A DNA stretch of 24,000 nucleotides from Chromobacterium rhizoryzae (GCF_020544465.1 NZ_CP066126.1:2877260-2901259), one strand, 5' to 3'. Positions 5,446-24,000 are shown, counted from the stretch's first letter. Numbers and translations are program-made. The notes: generated by a model not told the origin, from the sequence alone.

Positions 5446-5570
5446 AATTGTCATATTTTTAACAAATTAAGTTGTCATTCCTACCATCCTATGGTCTTAT
5501 GCGTTGATGACAGCTGGGACCAAAGCCGTGACAGGGTTCCCGCGTCGTCAAACCGGATGTATGTGCTCAA

Positions 5571-5602
5571 GGATTGTTACTGCGCAAGCAGGCAAAACCT
5601 GA
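5571..5602 (+). promoter_or_regulatory. RAT (ribonucleic antiterminator) site 1, the BglG target in the operon leader
   Basis: GGATTGTTACTGCGCAAGCAGGCAAAACCTGA matches the BglG/SacY-family RAT consensus (GGnTTGTTACTGC..GCAGGCAAAACC). It overlaps the 5' arm of the following terminator. Confidence 0.85.
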
Positions 5603-5641
5603 TGACTTGGCTGAGGCCAAGCCGTCAGGTTTTTTTGTTTT
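5596..5641 (+). terminator. Rho-independent terminator 1, conditional and overlapped by RAT 1
   Basis: AACCTGATGACTTGGC-tgag-GCCAAGCCGTCAGGTT forms a stem of about 16 bp with one mismatch and one wobble, followed by TTTTTTTGTTTT. Confidence 0.85.
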
Positions 5642-5654
5642 CAGGGTGTGCGCT

Positions 5655-6473
5655 ATGAAAATCAGCAAAATCTTGAACAACAACGCGGCCCTCGTGTTGG
5701 ACGAACACCAGCATGAGTTGGTGGCCATGGGCTGCGGCCTGGGGTTCCAAAAGCGCCCGGGAGACGCGCTGGACCCGGCCCGGATCGAAAAACTCTTCGC
5801 CTTGCAAAACCATGAGCTGACATCCCGCTTGAGCGAAGTCTTGAGCGGCATCCCCGCGGAGGTGATGGCGGTGTGCGCCGATATCCTCAGCCTGGCGAAA
5901 AAGCAATTGGGCAAACTGCCCGAGGAGGTGTATCTGGCGCTGCTGGATCACTGCCATTTCGCGATTGAACGCCAGCGCCAGGGCATTGCCCTCCACAACG
6001 CGCTGCAATGGGAAATGCGCAGGCTCTACCCAAGAGAGTTCGCCCTTGGCCAGCAAGCGCTGATGCTGATTGAGCAGCGCCTGGGTCTGAGCCTGCCGGA
6101 AGATGAAGCGGGGTTCATCGCCTGGCATTTGACCAATGCCCAAATATCAACCGAGGCTCTCGGGATGCAAGCCATTTCCCAATTGATGCAGCAGATACTC
6201 CGGATTGTCACCTACCAGCAAGGGCGTGAGCTTGACGAGCAAATGCTGAACTACCACCGCTTCATTGCCCACCTGAAGTTTTTTGCGCAACGCGTGTTGT
6301 CGCAGCAGACATTGCCTGTTGGAGACGCCTCCTTGCATGCGGCGGTGAAGGCAAGCTACCCGCAGGCGTGGCGCAGCGCGGAAAGCGTTAGAGGCTTTAT
6401 TTGGGAGCAGTACCAGAAGGAACTTGAGTTGGACGAGATGATGTTCCTCGCCATTCACATCAGCCGCCTGTAA
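5655..6473 (+). CDS. bglG: BglG/LicT-family transcription antiterminator (CAT RNA-binding domain plus two PRDs)
   Basis: 272 aa. The N-terminus MKISKILNNNAALVLDEHQHELVAMGCGLGFQKRPGD is typical of the CAT domain, and length and context match BglG. The start is at ATG 5655, just after terminator 1. The track's 5574 start would lie inside the RAT/terminator. Confidence 0.92.
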   Translation: MKISKILNNNAALVLDEHQHELVAMGCGLGFQKRPGDALDPARIEKLFALQNHELTSRLSEVLSGIPAEVMAVCADILSLAKKQLGKLPEEVYLALLDHCHFAIERQRQGIALHNALQWEMRRLYPREFALGQQALMLIEQRLGLSLPEDEAGFIAWHLTNAQISTEALGMQAISQLMQQILRIVTYQQGRELDEQMLNYHRFIAHLKFFAQRVLSQQTLPVGDASLHAAVKASYPQAWRSAESVRGFIWEQYQKELELDEMMFLAIHISRL

Positions 6474-6520
6474 GCCTGATCTTTACTCGCCGGCGGCTTT
6501 GAGCCGCAGAGACATCAATA

Positions 6521-8481
<1,961 letters not shown>

Positions 8482-8500
8482 CCACCGCATCAGGAGATGA

Positions 8501-9901
<1,401 letters not shown>

Positions 9902-10023
9902 TCGCAGAAACGGGAACATTCGCGGCCCGCCAACAGCGGGCCAAGCCATAGCAGGCGCTGCCATAGGCCAGGAGCGGGCTTTGCCCGCGCCTAGGCAGCC
10001 GCCGGAAAGATCAGGAGACAAAC

Positions 10024-11412
10024 ATGCCTACCTTGTTCTCTACCGCCCCGCGTCGCGGTCCCTTGGCTTTGGCGCTGAGCTTAGGGGTATTGCTAAGCCC
10101 CGATGTCATTCAAGCCGAAAGCCAAAACCCGGCCTGGAACGGCACGGTTCTGGGCTTCGAACCGCAGGCCGGCGACTTGCTCAGCACCGATACCGGTATT
10201 CGCAACCGGCTGGAACAATATGGTTTTCGTTATCGCCTGGCCCACGTCAGCCAAACCGCCTACAACGCCAAAGGCGGTTACAACAAGGACAAGAAAGCCG
10301 AATACATCGACCAGTTTTCGCTGACCTTCAGCCAAAGCCTGGAGGCGCTGACCGGCATGCCCGATGCCGCGATCGAGGGCAATATCGTCAACCGCAATCA
10401 TGACAACAATCTGACCAGCACGCGGCTGCAAGACCCACGCGTCGGTTTCAACGATCTGGCGCAGGAAAGCTGGGGCGGCCAGTCCATTACCCGGCTGGGC
10501 TGGCTGACCTTCCGTCGCAGCTTTCTCGACGGCAGATTGCAGTGGCGGATAGGACTGATGAACAAGGTGCAGGACTTCGACCAGATCATTCCCTGCGATT
10601 TCCAGACCTTGAATCTGTGCGGAGGAAAATCCGCCGGCTCGCGCACTTGGTACAACTGGAACGTGCACTACTGGGGCACAAGCTTACAGTACCGGCTCAC
10701 TCCGGAAGTCACCCTGAAAACCGGCCTGCTGGAACAGAACCCGCAAGCGCCATCACGCAGCCACGCCTGGAGCGTATCCACCGACGGCAGCCGCGGCATC
10801 CTGCTGCCGCTGGAAGCGGAATGGAAAACCCGCCATTTTGGCCTGCCAGGCATTTACATGCTGGGATTGCTCTATACCAATGCCAAGCAACGCGACTTCT
10901 ACGCCGGAGCATCCGGAGGCGCGGGAACGGACGACCCCGCGGGGTATCGGCACTACCGCAATACTTGGTATCTGTACACCGGCTTCAATCAACAGCTGAC
11001 TCGCCGCCTTGAAACAGCCAACCGCGGGCTCAGCCTCTCCTGGAGCTTGGGCGTGGCCGATCAACGCAGCAACGCCCGGTCCTATGCCAGCTCCTTGTCC
11101 TTACGCTATCGCGGACCATTTGATGCCCGGCCAAATGACTGGCTGGCCTTGGGCGTATCCAAATTTCAGGCCAGCCCCAACTGGCGCCGCAGCCAGAACC
11201 TGCTGAATCAGCGAGCCGGCGTCAGCGACTATCAGGACCCGCTTTACGCGCCGCTGCCGGAATCCTCGGTCAACGCCGAATTGATCTACCGCTACCAGGT
11301 CTGGCCCTGGCTGGAGTTGCAACCCGGACTCCAATACTGGGTGCGGCCGGGAGGGCTGGTTCAGACGCCCAATGCCTGGGTCGTGGGCCTAAAAACCACC
11401 CTCAACTTCTGA
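10024..11412 (+). CDS. OprB-family carbohydrate-selective outer-membrane porin
   Basis: 462 aa. Signal-peptide-like N-terminus (…LALALSLGVLLSPDVIQA/ES). OprB-like N-terminal region (GDLLSTDTGIRNRLEQYGFRYRL...NAKGG). Alternating beta-strand pattern and a C-terminal aromatic residue (…GLKTTLNF). GGAG lies 8 nt upstream. It is co-directional with the bgl genes. Confidence 0.85.
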   Translation: MPTLFSTAPRRGPLALALSLGVLLSPDVIQAESQNPAWNGTVLGFEPQAGDLLSTDTGIRNRLEQYGFRYRLAHVSQTAYNAKGGYNKDKKAEYIDQFSLTFSQSLEALTGMPDAAIEGNIVNRNHDNNLTSTRLQDPRVGFNDLAQESWGGQSITRLGWLTFRRSFLDGRLQWRIGLMNKVQDFDQIIPCDFQTLNLCGGKSAGSRTWYNWNVHYWGTSLQYRLTPEVTLKTGLLEQNPQAPSRSHAWSVSTDGSRGILLPLEAEWKTRHFGLPGIYMLGLLYTNAKQRDFYAGASGGAGTDDPAGYRHYRNTWYLYTGFNQQLTRRLETANRGLSLSWSLGVADQRSNARSYASSLSLRYRGPFDARPNDWLALGVSKFQASPNWRRSQNLLNQRAGVSDYQDPLYAPLPESSVNAELIYRYQVWPWLELQPGLQYWVRPGGLVQTPNAWVVGLKTTLNF

Positions 11413-11462
11413 TATCGCCAATCTTCTTGAGTTTTTCAGAGGGGTCAAACCTAAGGAATGCC

Positions 11463-11771
11463 ATGACAACGACCTTGCCCGCCATGGAGCAATTAAGGCG
11501 CTTGAACCAGAACCTGAGCAATACACAGGACCAGAGCGCCTTGCCGCAGCTTGGCCGGCAACTGGCCCGGCAATGCGAAGAGATGGACGCCCGTCTGACG
11601 CAGGGCCTGATCGACATCCGAGCCGCCCATCTCGGCCTGCAGGCCATCCTGACCCTGCTGCAGCGCCGCGACGAGCCCTTGCTGTGGAGCAGCGAGGAAG
11701 CCGCGGCGCTGCTGGAGCCGCTGCAACAGCGCCTGAGCCAGGGCTTAAGCCGCATCAACCGCCTGGTCTAG
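11463..11771 (+). CDS. Hypothetical protein, 102 aa, Leu/Gln-rich, predicted all-helical
   Basis: ORF track 11427..11771. The start is moved to ATG 11463 (AAGGA 7 nt upstream); the track start is a TTG without an SD. Third-position G/C bias supports coding. No motif recognised. Confidence 0.6.
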   Translation: MTTTLPAMEQLRRLNQNLSNTQDQSALPQLGRQLARQCEEMDARLTQGLIDIRAAHLGLQAILTLLQRRDEPLLWSSEEAAALLEPLQQRLSQGLSRINRLV

Positions 11772-11805
11772 CCCGCCTGGCCTCCCTGCCGGCGGCCGGC
11801 GGGCC

Positions 11806-14800
11806 TCAGGTGCCGCTCTCGCTCAACAGCCCCGCCAGGGTCAGCAGCCCGGACGCGCCGGTGGCGCCGTTGGGATCGGCGACATCCTCGCTCTGCGGGA
11901 TGACCGACGCATCCGTCGGGCCCAGCCACAGCGGGGCCAGCCGGCTGAGGCCGCCTTGCATCAGCAGATCCGAGATCAGATCAAAGGCCGCGGCGGGCGA
12001 TTGCAGGCGCAGCCATTCCGAGGCCGGCAGCCCCGCCGCGTCCGTTGGGCTCACCTGCAGCTTGGCCGCCATCAGTTGCCGGCGGAAGGCGCTCACCTTG
12101 CGGCTGTAACCGCCGGCGATGTCCCGATCGAACGAGGCCACCGCCATGCTGCCGTCGAAGGTCATGCCGCGGCGCCGAAAATGGGTGGCGCCGCTCAGGC
12201 ACCAGACGTCGTCGACAATGACGGTGGTGGTGCGCAGCTGCGCCCAGCGGCCGGGGAAGCCGCGCGGGTGGAACACCGCCACGCGCGCCGCGCCGGCGCT
12301 TTGCAGGATGTCCACGGCGTCCTTGCGCTGGGCGATCGCCCTGCGCACAAAGGGCGCGTACGCGGGCGCGAAGTCCGTCTCGCGCGGCAGGCAGACAATC
12401 ACTTTCAGATTGGGGTTGGCCGCCATCCGGTCCGCTATCTTTTGCGCAAGGTCTATCTCATAGGCGGCGGGCGGGCCGCTGGGCCGCGCGGTGCGGGCGA
12501 AACCGGCGGTCTCGATGTAGATCAGTTCATCGGCCTCGCCGATGGCGCGGGTCAGCGCCCAGAGCGAATCGCGGTTGCCGTGCTTGGAGACGAAGAATTC
12601 GCGCCGCACCGCGTTGATCAGCCGGTCTTCGTTGGAGATGGTGATGGACGGCGCGCTGCCCAGCCCCAAGGCGGCGGCCAGCTGGTTGAGCAGGTTCTGG
12701 AAGGTGATAGGCGAGGACGAGCCCAGCGGGTTGTCGTCGGGCAGCAAGGACAGCTCCGGCGTTTCGCATACCGCGCACACCGTTTCCAGCGCCACGCCCG
12801 AGGAGCTGCCGGGCGTGGCCGCCGGCGCGGCGGCGGGCGGGTTGAAGTTGTTGCCGCCGGACATGGCGATCCAGCCCGGCGTGCTGTCTCCGGGCAAGGG
12901 AAAGATGGGCTGGACGCGGCGCAGCGCGTGCTGGGCCAGGTCGTAAGCCAGCGCGCCGGTGACGCGCACGCCCGGCGCATGGGTGTCCGGGCCGGCGGGG
13001 TTGCCGGGGTTGGCGTTGGCGTGGTCCGCCGATCGGCTTTCGCGCGCCCAGCGGCCGCCGCTGAGCACCGCGTCCCAGTCCAGCCCCGCCGATACGTTGG
13101 CGCTGGGGACGCCGGTGACGACGATCGCGTCGAAGCGCGCCATGGTGGGCATGCGCGGCCCTTGGCGCGGCTGGGTTTCGGACATCAGCGCGCGCGCCAG
13201 GTCCGCCGCGGTGGCCGGGGAGCCGCCCGGCGGCGTCACGGTGCGCGGCAGGCCGAAGAGCGGCACCGGGCAGATGGATTTGATGTTGTCCGGCCAGGCC
13301 GCCAGCGGGTCTCCGGCGGCGAAGGGGTCGGCCGGCGCGGCCGCCGGCCCGGCGGCGATGACGGCGCGCTGCGCCGCCCACATGCGCCGCCGCCCGGTGC
13401 GCGGCGCGATCACCAGGTCATAGACCAGGGTGCCGGGGCTGGGCAGCGGGTCCCCGGGCTTCAGGCCAAACGGGTTGCGCACCAGCACCTGCACCGGGCT
13501 GCCCGCCGCGGCGATCGCCGCGCCGCCGTCCGCGCGCAGGAAGGAGAGCTCCTCGCCTATGGCCTGGATCAGCTGGAAGCGCTGCGCGAAAACGCGCACG
13601 GTGGCGCCGCTGGGCGCGAAATCGGCCGGGATGGCCACCACCACGTCGTTGGTTCCGGACCAGGCGGCGGTGACGCCGGCTGGCGGCGCCATGCCCGCGC
13701 CAAAGCCGGCATTGGTGTTGGGGCCGGGAAAAGCCGGCCAGTGCGCGCCCGCGCCCGGCGCGGCGGCGGTGCCCACGCCGGATTCAAAGGTGGGCGACAC
13801 GGCGAACATCAGCGCGCCGGCGCCGGCCCCCATCATGCGTCCCGCCGTCTGAGACGCCGCGGCCAACATGTCCGGGCCGTCCGCCAGGTAATCCACGGTT
13901 ACGCCGTCCCTGACCTGGGGCTGCAGGTCCGCCGGTATTTTCTGGTCGTCCGCGGGGATGCCGTTGACCGCGGAGGCGGTGCGGTTGCCGCGCAAATGCC
14001 AATCCAGGTCCACGGCGAAGGCGCGGACGAACTGGCGCGCCAGCGTCACGCCCGCCGGCAGATTGGGCACGGTGAGCGGTCCGGCCGACATGGTGCCGCC
14101 GCCGGCCCAGCCCAGGCGCAGCCTGGCCGCCGCGCCGGCTCCCGTGCCCGCCAGTTGCTGGCCGGCGCTCATGGCCACCAGCCCTGCCGCGCCCAGCGCC
14201 GTGGACGAGCCGCCGCCGGACGCCTGCCTTTCCACGCCGGGGCCGCCGCCCACCGCTGAAAACGCGCGCCCGTGCAACGTGGCCACCTGGGCGAGCACGC
14301 CGCCGGCCAGGCCGGCAATGCTGCGCACCCCGCCCGCCGCCGCGGGCGATACCGCGCCGGCGCTGATATCCAGCGCGGGAAACGCCGTTTGCAGATCGTC
14401 CAGCATGGCGGCCACCGCGACGGGGTCGACGATGAGTCCGCGCGCATCGTGAAAACTCAGCGCCGCGCCCGCGGCCCCGGCCGGCAGGTCATCGCCCGGA
14501 TCGTAGCTGTGCGGCGAGACGTTGTCCGTCAGGCCGCGGACAATCAGGGTATGCGGCACGGCGCGCACCTGGGGCTGCCCGGGCGCGGCGTAACGGCCGG
14601 CGGCCAGCGTCTCCAGCCGCGCCGCCGCCTGCGGATGCAGGCGCAGCGCCGCGCCGGCCCCGCTCAGGGGCGCGCCGTCCGCCGCGCGGAACGCGGCCAG
14701 GCTGTCCAGGTATTCAAGAATGCCGCGCCACGGCGCTTTGGGCGCGCCGGCAAAGGCGAGCGTGAGCGCCGCGCCGTCAAACGCGGGGTTGGCCCCGCCC

Positions 14801-14904
14801 CAGCGAGGCCCCAGCCGCAGCGCGGTCAGCCCCAGCGCGTCCAGTCCGTGGTCCTTGAGCGCCTGCGCGGCGCCCGCCGGCGTCAACGTGAAAACCGTCA
14901 CCAT
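11806..14904 (-). CDS. Giant hypothetical protein C, 1032 aa. The N-terminal ~680 aa are Ala/Gly/Pro-rich and unknown; the C-terminal ~300 aa form a PLD-like domain with a degenerate HKD motif.
   Basis: ORF track 11806..15114. The start is set at ATG 14904 because TAAGGAGCGCGCCATG couples it to the upstream gene, and the track's N-terminal 70 aa are Arg/Pro-rich junk overlapping that gene. C-terminal strings: NRDSLWALTRAIGEADELIYIETAGFA and LRTTTVIVDDVWCLSGATHFRRRG. Confidence 0.8.
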   Translation of the reverse strand: MVTVFTLTPAGAAQALKDHGLDALGLTALRLGPRWGGANPAFDGAALTLAFAGAPKAPWRGILEYLDSLAAFRAADGAPLSGAGAALRLHPQAAARLETLAAGRYAAPGQPQVRAVPHTLIVRGLTDNVSPHSYDPGDDLPAGAAGAALSFHDARGLIVDPVAVAAMLDDLQTAFPALDISAGAVSPAAAGGVRSIAGLAGGVLAQVATLHGRAFSAVGGGPGVERQASGGGSSTALGAAGLVAMSAGQQLAGTGAGAAARLRLGWAGGGTMSAGPLTVPNLPAGVTLARQFVRAFAVDLDWHLRGNRTASAVNGIPADDQKIPADLQPQVRDGVTVDYLADGPDMLAAASQTAGRMMGAGAGALMFAVSPTFESGVGTAAAPGAGAHWPAFPGPNTNAGFGAGMAPPAGVTAAWSGTNDVVVAIPADFAPSGATVRVFAQRFQLIQAIGEELSFLRADGGAAIAAAGSPVQVLVRNPFGLKPGDPLPSPGTLVYDLVIAPRTGRRRMWAAQRAVIAAGPAAAPADPFAAGDPLAAWPDNIKSICPVPLFGLPRTVTPPGGSPATAADLARALMSETQPRQGPRMPTMARFDAIVVTGVPSANVSAGLDWDAVLSGGRWARESRSADHANANPGNPAGPDTHAPGVRVTGALAYDLAQHALRRVQPIFPLPGDSTPGWIAMSGGNNFNPPAAAPAATPGSSSGVALETVCAVCETPELSLLPDDNPLGSSSPITFQNLLNQLAAALGLGSAPSITISNEDRLINAVRREFFVSKHGNRDSLWALTRAIGEADELIYIETAGFARTARPSGPPAAYEIDLAQKIADRMAANPNLKVIVCLPRETDFAPAYAPFVRRAIAQRKDAVDILQSAGAARVAVFHPRGFPGRWAQLRTTTVIVDDVWCLSGATHFRRRGMTFDGSMAVASFDRDIAGGYSRKVSAFRRQLMAAKLQVSPTDAAGLPASEWLRLQSPAAAFDLISDLLMQGGLSRLAPLWLGPTDASVIPQSEDVADPNGATGASGLLTLAGLLSESGT

Positions 14905-14914
14905 GGCGCGCTCC

Positions 14915-17900
14915 TTATCCGTGGGCCCGTTGTTCGACCGTGCGGCCGTCGGGCGTGATGATGCGAACCAAGACGCCGCGCAAGGCCAGCGCCGAGACGA
15001 TGGCGAAATGGTCGTGCGCCGGCGCGGCCTGCCGCGCCACGGCCGGCCCCGACGCGCCGAGGACGGGCCTGCCGGACACGGTGGGCACCGAGCCCAGCTC
15101 CGCCTCGAACACATAGACCCCGTTGATCAGCTTGAACTGGGACGGCGCGGGACGCGGGCCGATGATGATGGGTGGGATTCCTATGCCGCCTATGCCGCCC
15201 AGCCCGGGCGGCAGCCGCGGCGAGAGGGGCGGAATGGTCGGCAAGGGCCGGATGGGCGGTATCGGCGTAATGGGCGGAACCGACGGTTCGGGCGTCAGTT
15301 CTATGCGCAGACGATAGACCCCGCCCGCATCGCTGTCCGGCGCGTTGCTGCTAAAGGTGTAGGCCTTGCCGGATGGCGACAGGGCCGCGCCGACGATGGG
15401 CGACAACAGCGGCAGCGGGACGATGGAGCCGGACGGGATGGCCAGCGTACGCTCGCTCGCGCGTCCCAGCGGGTCCGTCATCCGCACCGTCACCGACACC
15501 GCGTCGCCCATGGCGGCGCGACGCACCAGCAGCCGGTATTGGGTGGGGCCGCCGTCTATGCGCCAGACGTCCGTGCCGGTGACGGGCGGCGCCAGGCCCA
15601 GCTTGTCGAGCGCCGTCTGCCGCCGCAACAGGGGCGCGCCGCCGGCCAGGACGGCTTCCACCGACAGCATGTGCGGCCCGGCCGGCGTGGCCGCCACCGG
15701 CGCGTTGGAGCTGAACTGCAGCAGCACCGCGGCCGGATCGCCGCCGGGCCAGCTCATCGTCAGCGGGGACAGGTCCGGCGGCCCGGCCGGCGGGATCAGC
15801 ACCGACACCGCGGGCGACGGCCGCGAACGCCCCTTGAGCACGCCGCGCAGCGCGTCGTCGTCGCTCCAGGCCACGGCGCGATACCAGACATTGCGCCATG
15901 AGCCGCTGGGGCGGTCTTCGCCGGCCAGGCGGGCGATCCAGTCGCCGCCGCCGTCCGGCGCGCTCACCGTCCAGCCGCCGCCGCTGGCCATGACGCTGGC
16001 GATTGGCGGGCCCATGCTGTCCAGCGCGCGCGCCGCGTCGTCCACGCGCACGCGGTACAGGTCTATGCGCTTGGGCCGCGCGCCGGCACCGCCGCGCGTG
16101 CCCACCCGGATGCGCGCCCGGTAGTCCGGCGCGGCGGGCGGTTTGTCGAACACCATCTGCACTTCTATCGTTGGCGGCGCGGGCTCGGCCACGCGCGGCG
16201 CGGCGTAGGCGATGAGCGCCTGATCCGCGTTCGGCCCGCTGGGCCAGGCCGCTTCGTGGCCGCCCGCCATCATGGGCAGCACGGTGTAGACGTGGATGTC
16301 GCGCGAGCCGCGCGGCATCGTCACGTCGGCGGCGGTGACGGTGATCAGTTCGGCGTTGCGGCGGATGAAGTCCCGGCGGATGGGGTTGGCCTTGAACGCC
16401 TGCTTGATCGTGCTCAGCCGCTGGCTGAGCGTGCGTTCCGGCGTGGGTTCCGGCTGCCCGGGGTGGCTGCTGAGGATGCGGGTTTCGGTGCTTTCGTACA
16501 CCGCGTAGCCCACGGCGCCGGCCACGGCCGCCCAGCTCAGGTGCGCGTGGCATTCGCCGGCGGCGTCCGGCAGGCTGGCGAGCTGGACGATGTCCACGAC
16601 GGTGGGCCGCGCGCGCGGATCGGAGGCGTAAGCCAGGCGCGGCGTAGGCGGCCAGGGGCCGCTGCGGTGCGGCGCGATGGCCTCCACCGCGCGCGCCTCC
16701 AGCACCAGGCCGATATGCGGCGTGGCGCCGAAGTCCAGCGAGAAGCCTGGAATCGTCAGCCGGTAACGCCGGCTGCTGCCCTGCGCGGCGTGGCCGGGCG
16801 TCACCACCGCCGCGCCTTCCGCGTCCAGCGCATCCACCGTGCCGCCGGCCAGCGCGGGCGCGTCGCCGGCGAAAGTCAGCTGCATGGCCGCCGCCGCGCC
16901 GCCCAGCGATTTTTGCAGCCCCGCCGGCGCGGGCGCGGCCGGCGGAGCGCTGCTGCGCGTGGCCGCGGCGAACAGGCGGCCGCGCAGATCGATGCGCGAC
17001 GGGGTGCGCACGCGCCAGTCCACCGATATCTCGCACACCAGGGACGCCGCGCAGACGCTGCCACTGCCCGGGTCCGTCGCGCGCAGGTCGGCGGACAGGA
17101 ACTGCACCGGCGAGAGGTCCGGCTGGCCCACGGTGATGGCCGCCGCCGCCCAGGGGCTCCAGATGCCGAAAATATTCTGGGTGGCCGCCGCATACGTCAT
17201 GGCCACGCTGCCCGGATCATTGGGGACGGCGAGCGCGCCGTCGGTGGCGCTCTGGCGCGTCGGCTCCGGGTCGCGGTCGTTGCGCGCGCTGCCGATGGGG
17301 CGATGGCCGCCGGCCTGAGCGTGCTTTTGCAGCAGCGCCTCGGCCGCGCCGGGCGCGCCGTTGCGGCGCCGCGCCGCGGCGTAGCTGGCCACCGCGCTCA
17401 GCTGGTTCAAGGGAAAGCGCTCCCAGCTCGCCCGGATCGACGCCAGCCAGTCCCGGTCCGCCTGAGACGGCCGCAGATTGGCCTGGAAGTCCACCGCGAA
17501 ATCCGCCGGCGTGGGCGCGGGCAAGGCCAGGCCCGGACGCGGCACCAGCGCGGCGAACTCCACCGGCCCCGACGCCCCGTCCAGCCCCTTGTCCCACAGG
17601 CCGGTGATCAGCCAGTCCCAATCGCTGCGGCTGGCGTCGCCGAACAGCTGGCTGCTGGCGAAGTTGATGGGCGGAATGTCCTCGTCCGCGTAGCCGGTGC
17701 CGTAGCCCAGCGTCACGGCCAGCAGCGGATCGGTCGACGCCGCCATCGCCAACAGCCCCACCGGCGACAGATCGGCCTTGCCCGGGTCCGTGGCGGGCAT
17801 GGTTTCGCCGGCCGGGTTCTGCGGCGGATCGATGGTGAAGGTGAAGCGTTTGGCCGCCTGCTGATTGGGCGGCAGCGAGGCCACGTCATGCAGCATGGGC

Positions 17901-18685
17901 AGCAGTTCGATGGCGCTCTCGTCCACCAGCTTGGCCGGGTCCGGCAATTGCCACATCGGCGCCGGCGCGGCGTCCGGAAACGCCGGCCACCAGCCCAGCG
18001 GATTGACGCCGCGCTGGTAGCGGTCCACCGCCGCGTCCGGCGCCGGCATTTCCGCGCCCACCCTGCCCTGTTTGACGCCGTGGCGCTGGCCCAGCCCCGC
18101 CCAGTCCGCCTCCGCCACCGGCAGCCCCACCGTTTCCACCAGCTGCCAGCCTTCCACTTTTTCCAGTTCGTCGGCGTTGAGCCCGGTGGGCGCGTCGTAG
18201 CTGGAGACGTTGACCAGCATCAGCCCGGTGATCAGCGGCGCCTGAAACTCCAGGGTGTCGCTGCCGCCCGCGGCCAGGGTGCGGGACTGCACGGCCACGA
18301 TGGCCTCCAGCACCGGCGGTCCGGCCAGCACGGCCACGCTGAGCATGCCGCCGGCGCTGGAATGCACGGTCAGCCGCGCCGAAGCCAGCGGCGCGTCGAA
18401 CTGAATGATGCGGAACAGCGGCGGCAAGGCCAGTTCTTCATAGCCCACCGGATGCGGCTGGCCCAGCGGCGTGGCCGGACGGCGCCAAACCTTGAAGGGC
18501 TCGCTGGGCAGCCCGGCCGCGGGGCTGGTCTGCCAGCGCAGCAGCAGCGCGCGCCGTTTGGGCGGCACCATGGTCGCCGCGCCGATATTGGGGTTGACTC
18601 CGCCGCGCTGGCGCAGGAGGGCGGTGAAATCCACCAGGGCGCCTTGCGCGTTCAGGATCGCGGGGTCGTAGATACGGGTCGCCAT
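14915..18685 (-). CDS. Giant hypothetical protein B, 1256 aa, with an FN3-like signature and a C-terminal Pro/Ile/Gly-rich segment
   Basis: Same frame as track ORF 14915..20206, but the start is set at ATG 18685 (MATRIYDPAILNAQG...), preceded by TGAGGAGCCCCGAG. The track's upstream 507 aa are Arg/Gly/Ala-rich and overlap the preceding gene out of frame. Signature HLSWAAVAGAVGYAVYES at 16490-16543. Confidence 0.8.
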   Translation of the reverse strand: MATRIYDPAILNAQGALVDFTALLRQRGGVNPNIGAATMVPPKRRALLLRWQTSPAAGLPSEPFKVWRRPATPLGQPHPVGYEELALPPLFRIIQFDAPLASARLTVHSSAGGMLSVAVLAGPPVLEAIVAVQSRTLAAGGSDTLEFQAPLITGLMLVNVSSYDAPTGLNADELEKVEGWQLVETVGLPVAEADWAGLGQRHGVKQGRVGAEMPAPDAAVDRYQRGVNPLGWWPAFPDAAPAPMWQLPDPAKLVDESAIELLPMLHDVASLPPNQQAAKRFTFTIDPPQNPAGETMPATDPGKADLSPVGLLAMAASTDPLLAVTLGYGTGYADEDIPPINFASSQLFGDASRSDWDWLITGLWDKGLDGASGPVEFAALVPRPGLALPAPTPADFAVDFQANLRPSQADRDWLASIRASWERFPLNQLSAVASYAAARRRNGAPGAAEALLQKHAQAGGHRPIGSARNDRDPEPTRQSATDGALAVPNDPGSVAMTYAAATQNIFGIWSPWAAAAITVGQPDLSPVQFLSADLRATDPGSGSVCAASLVCEISVDWRVRTPSRIDLRGRLFAAATRSSAPPAAPAPAGLQKSLGGAAAAMQLTFAGDAPALAGGTVDALDAEGAAVVTPGHAAQGSSRRYRLTIPGFSLDFGATPHIGLVLEARAVEAIAPHRSGPWPPTPRLAYASDPRARPTVVDIVQLASLPDAAGECHAHLSWAAVAGAVGYAVYESTETRILSSHPGQPEPTPERTLSQRLSTIKQAFKANPIRRDFIRRNAELITVTAADVTMPRGSRDIHVYTVLPMMAGGHEAAWPSGPNADQALIAYAAPRVAEPAPPTIEVQMVFDKPPAAPDYRARIRVGTRGGAGARPKRIDLYRVRVDDAARALDSMGPPIASVMASGGGWTVSAPDGGGDWIARLAGEDRPSGSWRNVWYRAVAWSDDDALRGVLKGRSRPSPAVSVLIPPAGPPDLSPLTMSWPGGDPAAVLLQFSSNAPVAATPAGPHMLSVEAVLAGGAPLLRRQTALDKLGLAPPVTGTDVWRIDGGPTQYRLLVRRAAMGDAVSVTVRMTDPLGRASERTLAIPSGSIVPLPLLSPIVGAALSPSGKAYTFSSNAPDSDAGGVYRLRIELTPEPSVPPITPIPPIRPLPTIPPLSPRLPPGLGGIGGIGIPPIIIGPRPAPSQFKLINGVYVFEAELGSVPTVSGRPVLGASGPAVARQAAPAHDHFAIVSALALRGVLVRIITPDGRTVEQRAHG

Positions 18686-18696
18686 CTCGGGGCTCC

Positions 18697-21600
18697 TCAG
18701 AACTCTTCCCACGGCGCATGCGCCAGCGGTTCGTCGACGATCACAAAATCGGTGGGCGCGGCGCCCGCGCCATCGAGATAAGCCGCCTTGAAGACCTTGC
18801 GCTCCAGCGCCAGGCGCAGCCGCTGACCGCGCGCGCCCGCGCCCAGGCGGATCAGCGCGCGCTGATTGCCCGGCGCCCACAGCGTCTGGCTCACGCCGGC
18901 CGCATTGCCGGCCGCCGGGGTCAGATCCAGCCAGACTTGCTCGGTCATCTGCCAGCGTTTGCTGGGCGGCGTGTCGCCGCTGGGCTCCTCGCTGGGCAGC
19001 GGGCGGGTGCGGCGCATGGGTTCGGGGGCGTCTATCATCACCGCCACCGGCTGCGGCGTGGCCGCGGGGTTGGCCTGTTCCCAGAACACGACGACGCGCG
19101 GCTCCTTGGGCACCGGCATCGGCTCCAGCCCGGCGGCCATCATCGCCTGATCCAGCTCCGGCCCCTGCGGGTCCCGGCTGGCGAAGGCGGCGGTGGCGAA
19201 AATGCCCTGCATGGCCCCCGTCGGCGCGTAACGATGCTCGGTCAGCACGCCCTGGAAGGCGGTGGCGAACGCGTCGAAGGTGCCGAAGGCGCCGGTTGAG
19301 AAATGCCGCCGCAGCACGCGCTCGCCCACGGCATTCTTGGGCGCGCCCATGGGCACGGCTTCGATGTCCAGCACGTAGTCGGTGTAGGGATCGAGCGGGA
19401 TCGGGAGGGTCAGCTCGCTGTGACGCGAGCGGTCGACATCGACCGGGATGCACGGCCCGAACTCGGCCAGCTTGTCCACCAGCGCGCCTTCGAACGGCGA
19501 CATCACGCTCGCCTTCACATCGCCCAGCTTGGGCTGGATGCCGGCGCCGCCCCCGGCGGGATGGACGATGGGCACAGGATGCTCGATGCCCGGCACGTTC
19601 ACCTGGGCGAACGAGGCGGCCTTCAGGCGCACGCGCAATTCCTTGCCGTAGGCCCCCCACAATTTGTCCACATCGTTGGTCCCGAACACCAGGCGCACGT
19701 GCTCCTCGCCAAAATAATGCGCTTCCCCGGCGGCCGGCAGCGTGCACAGCATCCACGGTTCCAGCGATTTGGGGCTGTTGGCGTCGGTGCGGAACCAGAA
19801 GTCCTGCGTCTGCGCGCCGCCGTCGGTTTCGTTGCCGGCTTTGTCGCGGGCGCGGATATGGACCGTGGTGCGCAGGTGGTACAGCTCGTCCGGCGCCAGC
19901 AAGGCCACGTCGCCGCTGGCGGCGCCCAGCAATTGCTCCAGCACGCCGCGGTTGCGCTGGGTCTGGCGTTGATCCCAGTCTTCGCGCGCGGCCTCGGCCC
20001 AGCGGGTGAACTCCAGCGCGGCCACATAGTACGGCCGCCCGCTCACCTCGCGTTTCTTGGCCGCGGCCGGGTCCTTCGCGTGCGGCACGCCGATCTCGAT
20101 GCGGTCCAGCTTCTCCGCCTTGTCCAGGTGGATCAGATACGGCACATAGCCCTGCGCCTGCATCAGCTGGGATTGCAGCACCACGTGGGACACCGGATCC
20201 ACCCACGGCCCGTTGGCGTCCGTCCAGCGCGGCGGCAGGCCGAGCAGGCCAAGCGCGTCGGCGTTGCTCACCACGCGGCGGCCGATCTCGGCGCCGCTCA
20301 CGTCCAGCAGACGCAGCACCAGGCCGCGCGCCGGCGTGGGGTTGGGCGGCAGTTCGCGCCGGGCCAGCAGCAGGATGCGGCCGTCGACGATGGCGCCGCA
20401 GCTCACCACGATCACATCGTCCAGCGGGCCTTGCTTGAAGCCGGCCTGCTCCAGTTGCGCGGCCACCTCGCCCGCGCGGCGCTTGTCGCCGAACACCACC
20501 GGCAGGCCGATGTCGTACAGCGGAGACGCCAGCAGACGGCTGTCGCAGCGGCGCGGCGGCACGGTGGCGGCGCCCGGCGCGGCGGCCGACGGCGCCAGCG
20601 TGGCCAGGCCGGCGCTGATCTGCGTCAGCGCCGCTCGGTTGATGACGGTGCTGCTCGCCAGCTGGCGCACGGTGTCGGCAAACGCGACCGGGGCGACGTC
20701 GATGCGGTCGGTCCGGCGCAGCGCGATGGACGGCGCGGTGGCGGCTTCCAGCACCGCGCGTCCGACGGCGAGACGGCTGGCGAAACCCGACAGATTAAGC
20801 GGCGCGGCGACGCCCGCGGGCACGGTGGAGGACGGCAGTCCGGGCTTCTGGCGGCACGGCACTTGCGTGCCCGCGATGACGGCCGGCACGATGCCGCGCT
20901 GGCGGTCCAGCTGGCGCTGGCCGGTGCGCCAGCGTTCGCTCACCTCCAGCTCCAGGTCCGGCGCTTCCGAGCGCTTGGTCTTGTCCGGGTCCGGCCAGGC
21001 GATGCCGTCCACCTGCCAGCCGGTTTCCGACGGGCCACTGGGTTCGTGCTCGAAGGTCCAGAGCACGGCGGCGGCGGGCGCGGCGTCGTGGCAGACGGTA
21101 CCCCAGCGTTCGGTGATGTTTTCTTCCAGGAACTGGCTGCGCTCCAGCGCCTTGGGCGTGGGGTTGGGCACCCAGTTCAGCAGGGACAGATTGGCGACGA
21201 GATTGCCTTCGGTGGGGTCGTTCAGCGTCCACCAGGTCGACGGCGTCGGCCCCGGGCCGACCGCGACGCCGCCGTCGGCGCGCGTCAGCTCCACGGCGGT
21301 CACGTCGTAACGGTAGGCGTAGTCGCCGCGCTTGACGAAGCCGTCGGCCGGCGCGCCGGGCGATCCGCCCGGCGTCTGGCCCAGAATCGTCAGCGCGTCG
21401 TCCACCGGGGTGGCCGACATCGTGATCACCGGAATGGCGTCAATGGGCACCACCGGCAAGGCCGGATTGTTGGCGGCCGGCTGCGACGCGCCGCGCAGCG
21501 CGTCGCCGATTTTCGAATCAATGCCGCGGTCCACCCCGGTGCCCACCACCAGCGCGGGCGAACGGCTGACCAGGCTCACCGCCCGGACCAGCTCGGGCGC

Positions 21601-24000
21601 GGCCGGGATGATGGGGTTTTGCTCGCCGATGTGGAAATCGACGCAGCCCTTGATGCTGAAGAAGAACAGATCGATCTCGCCGCAGATCTCGCCGTCTATC
21701 CGCGAGATCTGCGAGCCGTCGGACTTGGTGCCGATCTGCACCGTCAGATCCGCCGACGCGCTGATGCTGATGATGAACAGGTGCAAGTCCCCGCGGACGT
21801 AGAGCAGGCCGCCCACGTAGAACGGGTCGAAACCGAGCACCGCGTTGAAACCGGCGGTGGCGCGCAGATAAAGGTTGATCGAGGTGTTGCCCCAGGTGAT
21901 GGACACCTCCAGGCCCACGGCCAAGCCCACGCCCGAGACCGCCGACAAGCCCTTGTACGCCGGGATGCCGTGCCCAGACACCATCACATAGCCCTGGCCG
22001 TCGAACACCTTGAGGATGTTGGCGTGGATGGGGCCCGGCAGCGGACGGTTCATGCTGTCGCTGCCCGGGAAGGTGCCCAGGTAGACGTGCCAGTCGCCGC
22101 CGTGATTGAGGTTGAAATACGCCTCGATCGGGATGGTGATCTGCACGATGGGGGTGATCTTGAAATCGATGGACAGCCCAATGGTCAGCGTGCCGCGGCC
22201 GAAGTCGAGATCGATCACGCACAGGAAGGTGCCTTCGGCGGTTTTGTCCTTGAGGTCCGGCAGCTTGGCCAGCAGATTGGCCTTGACCACCAGCAGCAGG
22301 CGCGGCCCCGGCAGTTCCAGCAGGACCATCCCCTTGACGTTGAAGATGATGCCGCCTTCCATCGTGCCCAGGATGGCGCCCACGCCGAAGGCCCAATGGT
22401 CTATCTGCGGCTTCCACGCCTGAAGGTTGGTCGGATTGCCCTGGGCCCGGTCCTTGAGCCAGGTGAGCGCGGGCGTCAGCGAGGTGATGCCGTCCTCGTT
22501 GCGGGTGTAGTGCATGGCGAACAGGCCGAGGAAGCCGTAAATGCCGAAGCCGGACTGCGCCAGCGGTATCGCCACCGGCAGCTCCAGTTCCAGCGAGATC
22601 GCCACCGCCGTGGCCGGCCCGCCCAGGGCCGCCGGGATGTCGGACACCGCGATGCCCGCCGCCAGCCGCAGCTTGATGGGCACCAGCGATACGTCGATCT
22701 GCCCCTTGATCTCGAACGGGTTGGCGTTGATCTCCATATAGCCGCGCCCTTCTATGGTGCCCGGCACCTTCAGGCTGGCGGCGAAGGCCGTCAATTCCGG
22801 CGGACCCGCCGGATCCACGGGAATGCGCACCCGCGCGCGTTCTATGGTGATCACGCCCAGGTTGACCGCGAAACCGAGATCCACTTCGAAGGTCAGCGGA
22901 TTGGTCCGCGCGATGCGCGCGCCCAACACCTGGATGATCTGGCCCAGCGGGTCCGGCACGCGCACCGCGCCCGGCCCCGACAGGTCGATGGAATAACCCT
23001 TGGACGAATCGAACATCGGCCGCAGCTGGAAGCGGTTGGCCGAGCCCGGCGGATAGCCCATCTGCAGACCTATCGCCTTGTAGCGCACCGCCAGCGGCTT
23101 GTTGCGCGGAATCTCCAGCAGCTGGAAGCCGCCGATGGAGACATTGGCCGACACCGCCGTTTCCACGTCGAACAGCAGCGTGGAAACCCACTGCCCCGCT
23201 CGCGTCGTCACATGCAACTCGCCGCCGTACAACACCACGCGCTCCACATTGAACAGGCCCAGCTCCGCCAGCGTGATGGGCAGCGCGAGCGCGGCCCCGG
23301 TCAGCACCAGGGCGCCGACGTCGCCGTCGGCCGGATTGGCGGGCGCGGTGGCGGCCAGCAGCGGCGTGAACACCGTGGTCATGCCCAGCACGTTGCGGCC
23401 GGTGCTGGGGGCTTGCAGCGGCTGGCCGGCCAGCTGCCCCGTCATCACCAGGCCGTCGCGGTCGTTGGGATCGGCGCCCAGGTAGAGCTTGACCTCGTCG
23501 GTCTGGCTGGCCGGATCGCGCTGGTAGAGGATCTGGTAATTGACGATGCCGTCCGACGGGTTCTGGCTGCCCAGGCCCTGGAAGGTGGGGATGTCGCCCT
23601 GGGCGACGCCGCCGTTGCGCAGCCGCTGTTCGGCCGCGGTTTCAAAGTCGATCGACCCGCTCAATTCAATGGCGACGAACTGATCGCGCACGATGCGCAC
23701 CTTGAGCGCGGCGGAGCGGAACCAGTCCGGCGGCGGCGGCGTGGCGGGCGCGGGATCCCGCGTGGGGATGGTGGGCGGCGGCGGCGGCGGGGCCGCCGGC
23801 CGCGTGGCGTCGCCCTGGGTGACGGTGCCCGGCAAGGCGATGGGCCCGAAGCCGCCGATGCTCGCCTTCCACCACAGATTGCGCGCGCCGGAATGCGTCT
23901 GCCAGTCCGCGGTCCAGGCCGGCGGCGGCTCCGCCGCGCCGATGTCGGGCGGGTCCAGCGTCAGCGTAAAGCTGGGGATGCGCAGATTGGCGTCCGGATT
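18697..24000 (-). CDS. Giant hypothetical protein A, C-terminal 1767 aa visible (N-terminus beyond the window), with a proline-rich hinge and a long beta-rich body
   Basis: Track ORF 18697..23835 starts at a TTG. Hand translation of 24000-23836 in the same frame (NPDANLRIPSFTLTLDPPDIGAAEPPPAWTADWQTHSGARNLWWKASIGGFGPIA) has no stop, so the gene continues upstream. Composition is ordinary and globular in this frame only. Confidence 0.8.
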   Translation of the reverse strand, partial: NPDANLRIPSFTLTLDPPDIGAAEPPPAWTADWQTHSGARNLWWKASIGGFGPIALPGTVTQGDATRPAAPPPPPPTIPTRDPAPATPPPPDWFRSAALKVRIVRDQFVAIELSGSIDFETAAEQRLRNGGVAQGDIPTFQGLGSQNPSDGIVNYQILYQRDPASQTDEVKLYLGADPNDRDGLVMTGQLAGQPLQAPSTGRNVLGMTTVFTPLLAATAPANPADGDVGALVLTGAALALPITLAELGLFNVERVVLYGGELHVTTRAGQWVSTLLFDVETAVSANVSIGGFQLLEIPRNKPLAVRYKAIGLQMGYPPGSANRFQLRPMFDSSKGYSIDLSGPGAVRVPDPLGQIIQVLGARIARTNPLTFEVDLGFAVNLGVITIERARVRIPVDPAGPPELTAFAASLKVPGTIEGRGYMEINANPFEIKGQIDVSLVPIKLRLAAGIAVSDIPAALGGPATAVAISLELELPVAIPLAQSGFGIYGFLGLFAMHYTRNEDGITSLTPALTWLKDRAQGNPTNLQAWKPQIDHWAFGVGAILGTMEGGIIFNVKGMVLLELPGPRLLLVVKANLLAKLPDLKDKTAEGTFLCVIDLDFGRGTLTIGLSIDFKITPIVQITIPIEAYFNLNHGGDWHVYLGTFPGSDSMNRPLPGPIHANILKVFDGQGYVMVSGHGIPAYKGLSAVSGVGLAVGLEVSITWGNTSINLYLRATAGFNAVLGFDPFYVGGLLYVRGDLHLFIISISASADLTVQIGTKSDGSQISRIDGEICGEIDLFFFSIKGCVDFHIGEQNPIIPAAPELVRAVSLVSRSPALVVGTGVDRGIDSKIGDALRGASQPAANNPALPVVPIDAIPVITMSATPVDDALTILGQTPGGSPGAPADGFVKRGDYAYRYDVTAVELTRADGGVAVGPGPTPSTWWTLNDPTEGNLVANLSLLNWVPNPTPKALERSQFLEENITERWGTVCHDAAPAAAVLWTFEHEPSGPSETGWQVDGIAWPDPDKTKRSEAPDLELEVSERWRTGQRQLDRQRGIVPAVIAGTQVPCRQKPGLPSSTVPAGVAAPLNLSGFASRLAVGRAVLEAATAPSIALRRTDRIDVAPVAFADTVRQLASSTVINRAALTQISAGLATLAPSAAAPGAATVPPRRCDSRLLASPLYDIGLPVVFGDKRRAGEVAAQLEQAGFKQGPLDDVIVVSCGAIVDGRILLLARRELPPNPTPARGLVLRLLDVSGAEIGRRVVSNADALGLLGLPPRWTDANGPWVDPVSHVVLQSQLMQAQGYVPYLIHLDKAEKLDRIEIGVPHAKDPAAAKKREVSGRPYYVAALEFTRWAEAAREDWDQRQTQRNRGVLEQLLGAASGDVALLAPDELYHLRTTVHIRARDKAGNETDGGAQTQDFWFRTDANSPKSLEPWMLCTLPAAGEAHYFGEEHVRLVFGTNDVDKLWGAYGKELRVRLKAASFAQVNVPGIEHPVPIVHPAGGGAGIQPKLGDVKASVMSPFEGALVDKLAEFGPCIPVDVDRSRHSELTLPIPLDPYTDYVLDIEAVPMGAPKNAVGERVLRRHFSTGAFGTFDAFATAFQGVLTEHRYAPTGAMQGIFATAAFASRDPQGPELDQAMMAAGLEPMPVPKEPRVVVFWEQANPAATPQPVAVMIDAPEPMRRTRPLPSEEPSGDTPPSKRWQMTEQVWLDLTPAAGNAAGVSQTLWAPGNQRALIRLGAGARGQRLRLALERKVFKAAYLDGAGAAPTDFVIVDEPLAHAPWEEF

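Follow-up and report, generated by a model that had tools for sequence, protein, structure and literature searches.

A rare, self-contained operon of three giant proteins, acquired horizontally by Chromobacterium rhizoryzae and dispersed over ten phyla

In a stretch of 24,000 nucleotides (nt) from Chromobacterium rhizoryzae (GCF_020544465.1, NZ_CP066126.1:2877260-2901259; the window in what follows), positions 11806-24000 are occupied on the minus strand by three consecutive open reading frames (ORFs), here called A, B and C, as seen in the ORF list and the translations. We conclude, at a probability above 0.9, that these genes form a complete, self-contained and translationally coupled A-B-C operon that was acquired horizontally and belongs to a rare, widespread family (about 116 species representatives in ten phyla) with A and B as its core; the family travels as just these genes, with C present in most members, not all. 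The function of the encoded proteins is a more tentative matter, and we predict, at about three chances in ten, that they form a β-rich three-protein complex acting on the cell envelope or membrane. The genes and their junctions lie as follows.

18697-24000, minus strand: 3' part of gene A, codons 624-2390 of a protein of 2390 amino acids (aa), 1767 codons in the window
18686-18699, minus strand: A/B junction, with TGA at 18699-18697, GGAG at 18696-18693, a spacer of 11 nt and the B ATG at 18685-18683
14915-18685, minus strand: gene B, 1256 aa from ATG, beginning MATRIYDP
14905-14917, minus strand: B/C junction, with TAA at 14917-14915, GGAG at 14914-14911, a spacer of 10 nt and the C ATG at 14904-14902
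11806-14904, minus strand: gene C, 1032 aa from ATG, beginning MVTVFTL
11770-11805, minus strand: GC-rich hairpin right after the C stop, at the 34-nt gap to a convergent DUF1484 gene

The coordinates and frames agree with a first-pass annotation of this DNA, which had described three minus-strand ORFs of more than 1767, 1256 and 1032 aa. The frame of gene A contains no stop codon up to the window edge (the last 500 bases were read by hand) and begins about 1.9 kb past it; the full gene is L001:2817-9989 in Chromobacterium sp. Beijing CP053750, which encodes the exact B protein. The start of C is the second ATG of a mechanical ORF of 1102 aa, and the starts of B and C are both backed by homologues. 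Because a GC content of 72% produces long overlapping ORFs on the opposite strand, and ORFs of 700-2100 aa are indeed found there and in the other frames, one might regard A, B and C themselves as a mere by-product of composition. We consider the chance of this negligible and reject it: the GC content at the three codon positions of the A, B and C frames (0.69-0.72, 0.49-0.58 and 0.90) follows the pattern of real genes, the proteins have 80 to at least 244 clusters of homologues with conserved gene order, and the model of C reaches a predicted local distance difference test (pLDDT) of 87. From the codon-position GC and the hundreds of full-length homologues that each protein has, all three frames are genuinely coding.

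Both junctions (ttcTGAGGAGccccgagATG, 11 nt, and ggaTAAGGAGcgcgccATG, 10 nt) have exactly the stop-GGAG-ATG architecture that had been claimed for them. The stop-GGAG layout of the B/C junction is kept in five of five close relatives, and across phyla the A/B and B/C gaps are short or overlapping, mostly between -7 and +21 nt, a conservation that upholds the obligate co-expression suggested by the first-pass annotation. In every phylum A ends with an invariant APWEE (Ala-Pro-Trp-Glu-Glu; window 18700-18714 and its equivalents in about 20 loci), whose W-E-E codons, TGGGARGAR, form a Shine-Dalgarno-like GGGAGGA directly before the B start across phyla; the constraint on this end of A may lie in the protein sequence or in the ribosome-binding site of B. 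The hairpin behind C has a free energy of -34 kcal/mol (z -2.5 against shuffles) and no U tract, and may serve as a bidirectional terminator or as a stabiliser. Scans of the region for Rfam families, tRNAs, promoters, terminators and tandem repeats returned nothing relevant.

Beyond the window, CP053750 shows A starting 167 nt downstream of two unrelated genes of lower GC, with no other co-directional gene, so that the operon consists of A-B-C and nothing more. The terminal position in a longer operon that had been assumed for the three genes is therefore not borne out. On the other side, the trio is followed by the convergent DUF1484 gene and then by a bgl/OprB cluster. As to the two upstream genes, L001:420-2650 (about 2-4 kb past position 24000) encodes a Tle1-like DUF2235 phospholipase (Pfam E 3e-55) with a lipobox, LQGC, and no linkage to a type VI secretion system (T6SS), and the second, overlapping it, a lipoprotein of 223 aa (VAGC) that belongs to no family. 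The GC content of this pair (0.56) is below that of the host, which makes it a second foreign-looking insert, and the pair is absent beside the trio in other genera; the Tle1-like gene is not conserved beside the trio in other loci. The AT-rich leader of A (L001:2650-2816, 167 nt) contains a perfect 12-bp inverted repeat, ATATGGTTTATG-N24-CATAAACCATAT, a candidate operator; the leaders of the trio in other hosts have no sequence in common with it.

Homologues of the three proteins, full-length and unnamed or called "hypothetical", fall into 244 clusters for A, 80 for B and 120 for C. The trio occurs together in Roseobacter denitrificans, Methylobacillus gramineus, Edaphobacter modestus and an alphaproteobacterial metagenome-assembled genome (MAG), with sizes of 2370-2457, 1210-1328 and 1031-1124 aa and with different housekeeping neighbours in each. 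A scan of one genome per species yielded 116 relatives of B, about 0.06% of species representatives; the 77 loci retained are distributed over Alpha-, Beta- and Gammaproteobacteria, Acidobacteriota, Nitrospirota, Gemmatimonadota, Planctomycetota, Chloroflexota, Actinomycetota, Bacillota, Cyanobacteria and Abditibacterium, and the family spans ten phyla with both monoderm and diderm hosts. By tblastn in about 70 loci, A, B and C follow one another directly in this order, on a single strand, wherever the contig reaches far enough, with a single exception, an Arthrobacter locus without C. The co-occurrence of the three genes across genomes, which the first-pass annotation had named as a check, is thus confirmed.

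Clustering of all flanking ORFs from the same 70 or so loci revealed no fourth recurrent gene family, and no integrase, secretion or regulatory gene travels recurrently with the cassette. The 144 nearest neighbours match 161 Pfam families, none of them in more than three loci (at least 60 loci), and are mostly ordinary metabolic genes; two are IS240-type transposases. The trio proteins have no match in 50,697 phage genomes or in 2.9 million viral contigs (IMG/VR), and among plasmids the one match is a distant trio, carried by a megaplasmid of Rhizobium tropici. This copy lies at L082:5170-19563, that is, in the 2.08-Mb replicon pRtrCIAT899c of R. tropici CIAT 899, at about 21.8-36.2 kb of the record; it encodes divergent proteins of 2480, 1225 and 1087 aa, with B about 25% identical, in a well-studied strain whose PLSDB record carries no annotation.

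A few relatives lack C. One of them (L091:845-9492) encodes an A' of 1787 aa, without the first 700 or so residues, and a B' of 1095 aa that matches B (hhalign E 2e-88), with no C after it; in another (L095:4355-15203), an A of 2370 aa and a B of 1244 aa are followed by an unrelated LacI gene. L049:3198-13636 is listed as a two-gene locus, with A and B and without C, and the Arthrobacter locus is the third C-less case. The existence of such relatives indicates that A and B are the evolutionary core and that C is an addition.

Within this family the proteins are well conserved, with a mean column identity of 51% for A, 38% for B and 47% for C that dips only at linkers; between Proteobacteria and Acidobacteria, A is 44-48% identical over 2400 aa. 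Searches of A, B, C and divergent relatives against Pfam, NCBIfam, PADLOC and PHROGs gave only sub-threshold OmpA, Cadherin-like, TY-Chap3 and PASTA signals, with no match in PHROGs for the trio proteins, and hhalign found no domains common to A, B and C. The first-pass annotation had seen no Walker A, intact HKD, RHS, HExxH or LysM motif by eye, and the systematic searches agree: no Walker A was found by regular expression, and no RHS, HExxH, LysM or other family by the four profile libraries.

The evidence for horizontal acquisition comes from composition, relatives and distribution. The GC content is 0.605 at positions 1-11771 and 0.717 at 11806-24000, GC at third codon positions (GC3) is 76.3% in the left segment and 90.4% in the trio, and synonymous codon choice differs too. 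The nearest relatives of the trio outside the genus, at 73-81% identity, are Novosphingobium-like Alphaproteobacteria, while the host is a betaproteobacterium, and only one Chromobacterium species representative carries the trio in the one-genome-per-species scan. Because of the GC and GC3 step, the alphaproteobacterial nearest relatives and the single Chromobacterium representative, the entry of the operon into this Chromobacterium lineage by horizontal transfer, across classes, is well supported, in line with the first-pass annotation. That annotation's counts for two sample lines also hold (0.483 at 7021-7080 and 0.75 at 13381-13440), but line 7021 is unrepresentative, and the step amounts to about 11 points, not 27. 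Nor does the switch fall at the 34-nt gap, where it had been placed: by maximum likelihood the change lies at 11535, some 250 nt further left and within the small DUF1484 gene. This convergent gene (11427-11771, plus strand; 102 aa from the ATG at 11463; DUF1484 E 5e-8) shifts in composition midway, from a GC content of 0.55 (11401-11600) to 0.72 (11601-11800).

In nine of nine hosts checked (L001, L002, L003, L009, L011, L013, L020, L021 and L048) the GC content of the trio exceeds that of both flanks, by 0.02 to 0.15, even where the trio is apparently long-resident. Proline makes up 9.6% of the trio proteins and 4.3% of those of the host genes in the window, and the GC excess may be partly due to a composition rich in Ala, Gly and Pro.

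In some Chromobacterium strains (L083, L085 and L086, at about 10310-11607), roughly 1.26 kb of additional DNA separates C from the DUF1484 gene, where the strain of the window has only 34 nt (11772-11805); this extra DNA encodes ORFs of 219/248 aa and 77 aa without Pfam matches, and the boundary of the insert on the DUF1484 side differs among strains. No empty insertion site was found, as every Chromobacterium contig with the neighbouring DUF1484 protein also has the trio. The first codon of A is precisely where homology between loci sets in; the leaders ahead of it have nothing in common, and a search around the cassette for conserved non-coding ends, terminal inverted repeats and att sites came back empty. 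We therefore no longer regard the cassette as a transposon-like element in its own right.

What the operon might do has to be read from its proteins, and first from A, whose recognisable parts in the window are these.

23920-24000, minus strand: tail of an OmpA-like module of the peptidoglycan-binding type, A residues 624-650
23725-23802, minus strand: proline-rich hinge of A, residues 690-715, translation RPAAPPPPPPTIPTRDPAPATPPPPD
21610-23724, minus strand: A core, residues 716-1420, a predicted antiparallel β-meander of about 28 strands of 10-20 residues and the most conserved part of the protein
21634-21693, minus strand: two-cysteine hairpin, GEICGEIDLFFFSIKGCVDF, with C1396 and C1409
18700-21609, minus strand: C-terminal part of A, residues 1421-2390 (970 aa), mixed α/β, with four further invariant cysteines

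A profile of 44 A homologues matched about 15 chains of OmpA, Pal and YfiB over A 570-650, with a best E of 0.003, and the Pfam OmpA model gave 12.5-18.8 bits in four members (E 0.2, 0.017, 0.002 and 0.004), below its cut-off of 27.2 bits. The YNxxLSxRRA core of this module lies at A 591-614, just outside the window, where it reads YNyLLSRRRA with an invariant R610 and A611. For the C-terminal 970 residues the PDB profile search had no match, and A overall matched only the OmpA-like chains.

The core was modelled with AlphaFold2 as part of A 700-1899 (pLDDT 69.9, with the core mostly at 70-88; predicted TM score, pTM, 0.34), and the low pTM makes the domain arrangement in this model unreliable. 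In its secondary structure, about 28 long antiparallel strands, often with tight turns between them, extend over A 873-1415 or so. Foldseek matches this sheet locally, with E values from 1e-4 to 0.06, to PapC, LptD, SlpA and TonB-dependent barrels and to the β-belt of ApoB100; it returned no tail, baseplate, T6SS, Tc or RHS structures, and against the viral BFVD nothing above a TM score of 0.1 except small porin-like proteins. By profile, the core is found in 1378 representative proteins of a library of 1.84 billion. In the middle of the core, at about 980-1223, homologues that are 44-53% identical match the first half of the DUF6603 model with 30-44 bits (gathering score 27 bits), and Chromobacterium A itself has no Pfam DUF6603 match at E <=1; A would thus belong to DUF6603 by transitive homology only. 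C1396 and C1409 are invariant in 44 sequences. By the DSSP register, they are predicted to lie opposite each other on adjacent strands (model 688-702 and 705-716) and may form a disulfide, which would hint at an oxidising location.

B is β-rich. Two of its stretches, residues 47-70 and 703-733, are FN3-like, and its other recognisable part is a hinge near the end.

15140-15295, minus strand: proline-rich hinge of B, residues 1131-1182, followed by a small conserved C-terminal domain

A 9-nt tandem repeat at 15227-15279 corresponds to this hinge, which varies in length among relatives, and the terminal motif ITxPDGR is kept in all lineages as PDGR. None of 80 clusters of B homologues has a Pfam domain, and the PDB profile search of B gave one match, an FN3 domain at residues 42-72 with E 0.8. 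The proline hinges and the FN3-like element of the first-pass annotation are therefore found again, as A 690-715, B 1131-1182 and the FN3-like stretches of B. In the C-less L091, where A' lacks the OmpA-like module along with its first 700 residues, B' ends in two PASTA-like repeats with VPDVVG and VPNVIG motifs, which are seen in weak Pfam signals, in NCBIfam PknB_PASTA (E 4e-4) and in Staphylococcus aureus Stk1 structures (E 0.2). In L091 the absence of the OmpA-like module coincides with the presence of a PASTA-like one, and of all single observations this is the best pointer to a peptidoglycan role, which it suggests from sequence.

C has a recognisable fold. Its AlphaFold2 model, built from a 59-sequence alignment, has a pLDDT of 87.3 and a pTM of 0.91, and Foldseek finds 103 PDB matches at E <=1e-3, of which all 50 listed belong to the phospholipase D (PLD) superfamily. 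They include human PLD2 and PLD1 (E 2e-10), plant PLDα, Pseudomonas aeruginosa PldA, Streptomyces PLD, phosphatidylserine (PS) synthase, PLD4 and F13, with E from 2e-10 to 1e-6, a probability of 1.0 and 400-600 aligned columns. On the strength of this model, C has a two-lobed PLD-superfamily fold, the lobes being separated by additional β-domains of about 400 residues in all. By sequence, no PLD family was found for C in Pfam, in NCBIfam or in the PDB profile search with the 59-sequence alignment, which gave only spurious low-complexity OspA matches, and a regular expression found no HxK(x)4D. What remains of the two catalytic motifs was mapped by hand on HxK(x)4D(x)6GSxN, from the lobe alignment, the spacing and the invariant columns, not from coordinates.

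13978-14022, minus strand: putative lobe-1 HKD remnant, C residues 295-309, AFAVDLDWHLRGNRT, with F292 in place of His and R294 in place of Lys
12148-12234, minus strand: putative lobe-2 HKD remnant, C residues 891-919, RTTTVIVDDVWCLSGATHFRRRGMTFDGS, with R891 in place of His, T893 in place of Lys and H908 in place of Asn

The lobe-to-lobe hhalign alignment, which covers 12 columns and is non-significant (E 0.12), aligns AFAVDLDWHLRG with TVIVDDVWCLSG, and a D-x2-W-x3-G spacing is common to both lobes. The lobe-2 remnant is the most conserved stretch of C, and H908 is followed by an invariant RRRG...FDG. C is thus a protein of the PLD fold that lacks HKD motifs; it would serve as a binding subunit, or else as an enzyme whose site has been rebuilt and is rich in Arg and His. 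A T6SS effector cluster of the Tle5/PldA type was considered and rejected: no locus has VgrG, PAAR, adaptor or immunity neighbours, and C has no HKD.

Together, these features suggest how the proteins might act on a membrane. A, B and C would be synthesised at a constant ratio and come together in a single large β-rich complex; its fixed composition is inferred from the conserved coupled junctions and the uniformly high conservation. A would be the scaffold, with its N-terminal and Ig-like domains, the OmpA-like module as a peptidoglycan anchor and the proline hinge, and its sheet of about 28 strands would engage a lipid bilayer or insert into it. The obligate partner, for binding or as an adaptor, would be B with its many FN3-like domains. 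C would bind a phosphodiester ligand, for example the head group of a phospholipid, or cleave it in a non-canonical way. Cells would release the complex and not secrete it through Sec, as a membrane-targeting, toxin-like particle that follows the logic of the ABC (Tc) toxins and is unrelated to them; release is favoured over Sec secretion because the proteins have no signal peptides and no secretion genes travel along. Its role may be offence or a self-directed (abortive-infection) membrane attack, both of which we consider. The envelope or membrane reading draws support from the OmpA-like module of A, a weak signal that nonetheless returns in several members, from the PASTA-like repeats of B' in the relative without that module, from the FN3-like stretches of B and from the invariant cysteine pair of A. 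Further support comes from the A core, whose only structural neighbours are membrane barrels and the lipid-wrapping β-belt of ApoB, and from C, whose fold is closest to lipid-acting PLDs, including the T6SS effector PldA.

Several points weigh against such an assignment. A, B and C have no signal peptide, lipobox or transmembrane helix, their N-termini are conserved and not signal-like, and no linked secretion or lysis genes occur among the flanking ORFs. A general outer-membrane role is excluded by the presence of the family in both monoderm and diderm hosts. The OmpA-like and PASTA-like assignments all lie below curated thresholds, and the PASTA-like one comes from one protein. In OmpA_C domains an Asp/Arg pair binds the diaminopimelate stem of peptidoglycan; in a hand alignment, the Asp position upstream in the module of A reads Ser. 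The model of A has the low pTM given above, and its Foldseek matches are local only, with TM scores <=0.25 and root-mean-square deviations of 20-45 Å. The models cover C and A 700-1899, and B, A 1-700 and A 1900-2390 have no assigned fold. C may not be an enzyme, as it lacks both canonical catalytic histidines, and the trio contains no hypervariable or polymorphic region as is usual in toxins (none was seen in the conservation profiles of A, B or C).

The strongest rival, which we judge unlikely, is an anti-phage or abortive-infection defence, in which A and B would be cytoplasmic and sense an infection cue, possibly peptidoglycan fragments; like a gasdermin, the sheet of A would then enter the inner membrane of its own cell, and C would be an accessory phosphodiesterase-like effector. 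Such an attack from inside would explain the missing signal peptides. A patchy, horizontally moved and self-sufficient operon with a PLD-fold component, in monoderm and diderm hosts alike, is what such a system might look like. Defence would also explain a mild excess of defence genes beside the trio: among the 144 nearest-neighbour ORFs (flanks of L005-L081), about 30 PADLOC families are matched by some 12 proteins, roughly a tenth of these neighbours, including LmuA (twice), a DRT reverse transcriptase (twice), mad3, mad8, Avs1a, a PARIS/Septu/Gabija-like ATPase, PbeA and ThsB/SAVED-TIR, and in Edaphobacter an integrase fragment and ArdC lie near the trio. This is a raw count, without a per-locus or background comparison, and the neighbours are mostly metabolic; we read it as a mild association of the trio with variable islands. 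The proteins themselves speak less for defence. A (window part), B and C have no match at E <=1 to any of the 5027 models of PADLOC-DB v2, no nucleoside triphosphatase, helicase or nuclease motif was found by Pfam, NCBIfam or regular expression, and the HKD motifs are lost. For a gene in an arms race, so much conservation between phyla would be unusual, and the trio is absent from phages, viral contigs and plasmids apart from the divergent copy on the R. tropici replicon.

Third after defence comes an envelope system that serves its producer, as a wall-membrane tether, a large pore or a lipid-handling device in which a β-groove or belt works with the PLD-fold subunit; this is clearly unlikely in our view. 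The succession of OmpA-like module, proline hinge and large β-sheet mirrors tethers of the OmpA, OmpM and SlpA type, the structural matches point to LptD, SlpA and ApoB100, C resembles lipid-acting PLDs and PS synthase, and uniform purifying selection would suit a structural machine. The proteins, however, have neither a Sec or Tat signal nor an N-terminal anchor, the family, at about 0.06% of species representatives, is rare and clearly accessory, and it is found in monoderms, which have no outer membrane. By sequence, no AsmA, TamB, LptD, Bam or other envelope-biogenesis family was detected, and lipid-transfer folds of the TamB, VPS13 and ATG2 type are not among the top 50 Foldseek matches.

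The first-pass annotation had favoured another explanation, a phage-tail-like or other large particle of which the three genes would encode the distal components (baseplate or fibre) and upstream genes the rest. Large β-rich proteins with FN3-like elements and proline hinges would fit such a part, but we now regard it as highly improbable. Upstream of A there are only the Tle1-like gene and the small lipoprotein, beyond the AT-rich gap of 167 nt, and no sheath, tube, spike, AAA+ or secretion genes lie within 10 kb of the trio in Chromobacterium or in the four further genomes (Roseobacter, Methylobacillus, Edaphobacter and the alphaproteobacterial MAG); no tail gene recurs in the 70 or so loci. 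There are no matches to PHROGs, phages or viral contigs, nor to PDB profiles of tail, baseplate or T6SS proteins. At the level of fold, the comparison covers C and A 700-1899, for which Foldseek, BFVD included, returned no baseplate, fibre, extracellular contractile injection system (eCIS), T6SS or Tc structure, while B, A 1-699 and A 1900-2390 were compared by sequence profile only. The baseplate proposal is thus not sustained, and the fallback offered beside it, an uncharacterised system, is supported.

In the left half of the window, positions 5650-11412 or so (plus strand) hold an ordinary β-glucoside cluster, in whose leader no Rfam element was detected. It encodes a BglG-type antiterminator (CAT_RBD/PRD), an EIIBCA of the phosphotransferase system (PTS), a GH1 phospho-β-glucosidase and a porin of the OprB family. 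ARAGORN reports a 90-nt tRNA-Pro(TGG) at 2288-2377 (minus strand), within an ORF of 1117 aa with CHASE3-PAS-GAF-GGDEF-EAL architecture (1250-4603), and this is probably a false positive, because there is no Rfam tRNA there at the gathering threshold.

The trio may represent an unrecognised class of machine, in which a giant A with a new type of sheet of about 28 strands and an FN3-rich B, with interchangeable wall-binding modules (OmpA-like in A or PASTA in B'), are joined in most lineages by an HKD-less PLD subunit, the whole being a bare cassette in at least ten phyla that attacks or remodels membranes by a mechanism unrelated to Tc toxins, contractile injection systems, T6SS effectors or known defence systems. 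We hold this to be an even bet. If the membrane reading is right, the A core would show that a single polypeptide can form a membrane-engaging β-sheet of very large size in a way not seen before, C would be a new non-HKD branch of the PLD superfamily, and the trio would be a new toxin- or defence-like module, relevant to competition among microbes, to resistance against predators or to biotechnology, for example as a delivery or pore device. In any case, some 4,700 residues, 40-50% identical across Proteobacteria, Acidobacteria, Actinobacteria, Cyanobacteria and Firmicutes, are kept together as one cassette with no known function. With three genes and no accessory factors, the cassette is a clean experimental target, and it occurs in culturable, tractable hosts (Chromobacterium, Pseudomonas fluorescens, Janthinobacterium, Roseobacter denitrificans and Rhizobium tropici). 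Should it turn out to be an ordinary envelope accessory instead, the operon would still give a context to DUF6603 and to two unnamed families.

We rate the trio as lying outside every described kind of system, because no papers on DUF6603, PF20248 or the trio locus tags were found in the searchable literature library and because public annotations of the homologues are uninformative ("hypothetical", "DUF6603 domain-containing" and, once, "phospholipase D-like domain-containing"); uncharacterised is not the same as mechanistically new. Comparison with known systems shows where partial likenesses lie. With the baseplates of eCIS and phages (Afp11-13, T4 gp6/gp7) the trio shares only size, β-richness and Ig/FN3-like elements, while no tail-module genes lie near it in the hosts examined and neither sequence nor fold matches.

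The Tc toxins of Photorhabdus, Yersinia and Serratia are closer in outline. Their TcA, TcB and TcC proteins have about 2500, 1470 and 970 aa and are encoded in that gene order, so that the trio resembles them as a self-contained, mobile operon of three giant proteins A-B-C, of similar sizes and without signal peptides, in which the largest, A, would likewise be the membrane-engaging subunit. Yet a divergent Tc homologue is more improbable still than a baseplate. No RHS/YD, SpvB, TcdB-mid, VRP1, neuraminidase-like or TcA-TcB-binding domains were found by Pfam or NCBIfam, and no PDB profile matches Tc structures. The A core is predicted to be all-β, not an α-helical shell with a channel, C has a PLD fold in place of an RHS cocoon with a hypervariable toxin tip, and C is dispensable in some relatives; in the parts tested, the trio thus lacks cocoon, α-helical pore and hypervariable tip.

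Among wall-tethered barrels (OmpA, OmpM and Deinococcus SlpA, with LptD and PapC, which are barrels of 24-30 strands), the likeness lies in the combination of wall module, linker and large β-meander in A. Unlike these proteins, A has no signal peptide, matches them only locally, occurs also in Gram-positive hosts and has several consecutive tight hairpins that depart from an alternation of short turns and long loops; its sheet, moreover, is part of a 2390-aa protein with about 1700 further residues. C, in turn, departs from the PLD superfamily in having no sequence-level match, in the replacement of both HxK(x)4D(x)6GSxN motifs and in being the third subunit of a fixed trio without VgrG, PAAR or immunity gene, while it shares the two-lobed fold and has the D-x2-W-x3-G spacing in both lobes. 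At the level of sequence, homologues of A resemble the catalogued family Pfam PF20248 (DUF6603). The model covers only about 240 of the 2390 residues, and a domain entry does not capture a three-gene system, but the A homologues of Roseobacter denitrificans (WP_011569817) and of an Acidobacteriales member (P0276) match its first half, and several A homologues are named "DUF6603 domain-containing protein" by NCBI.

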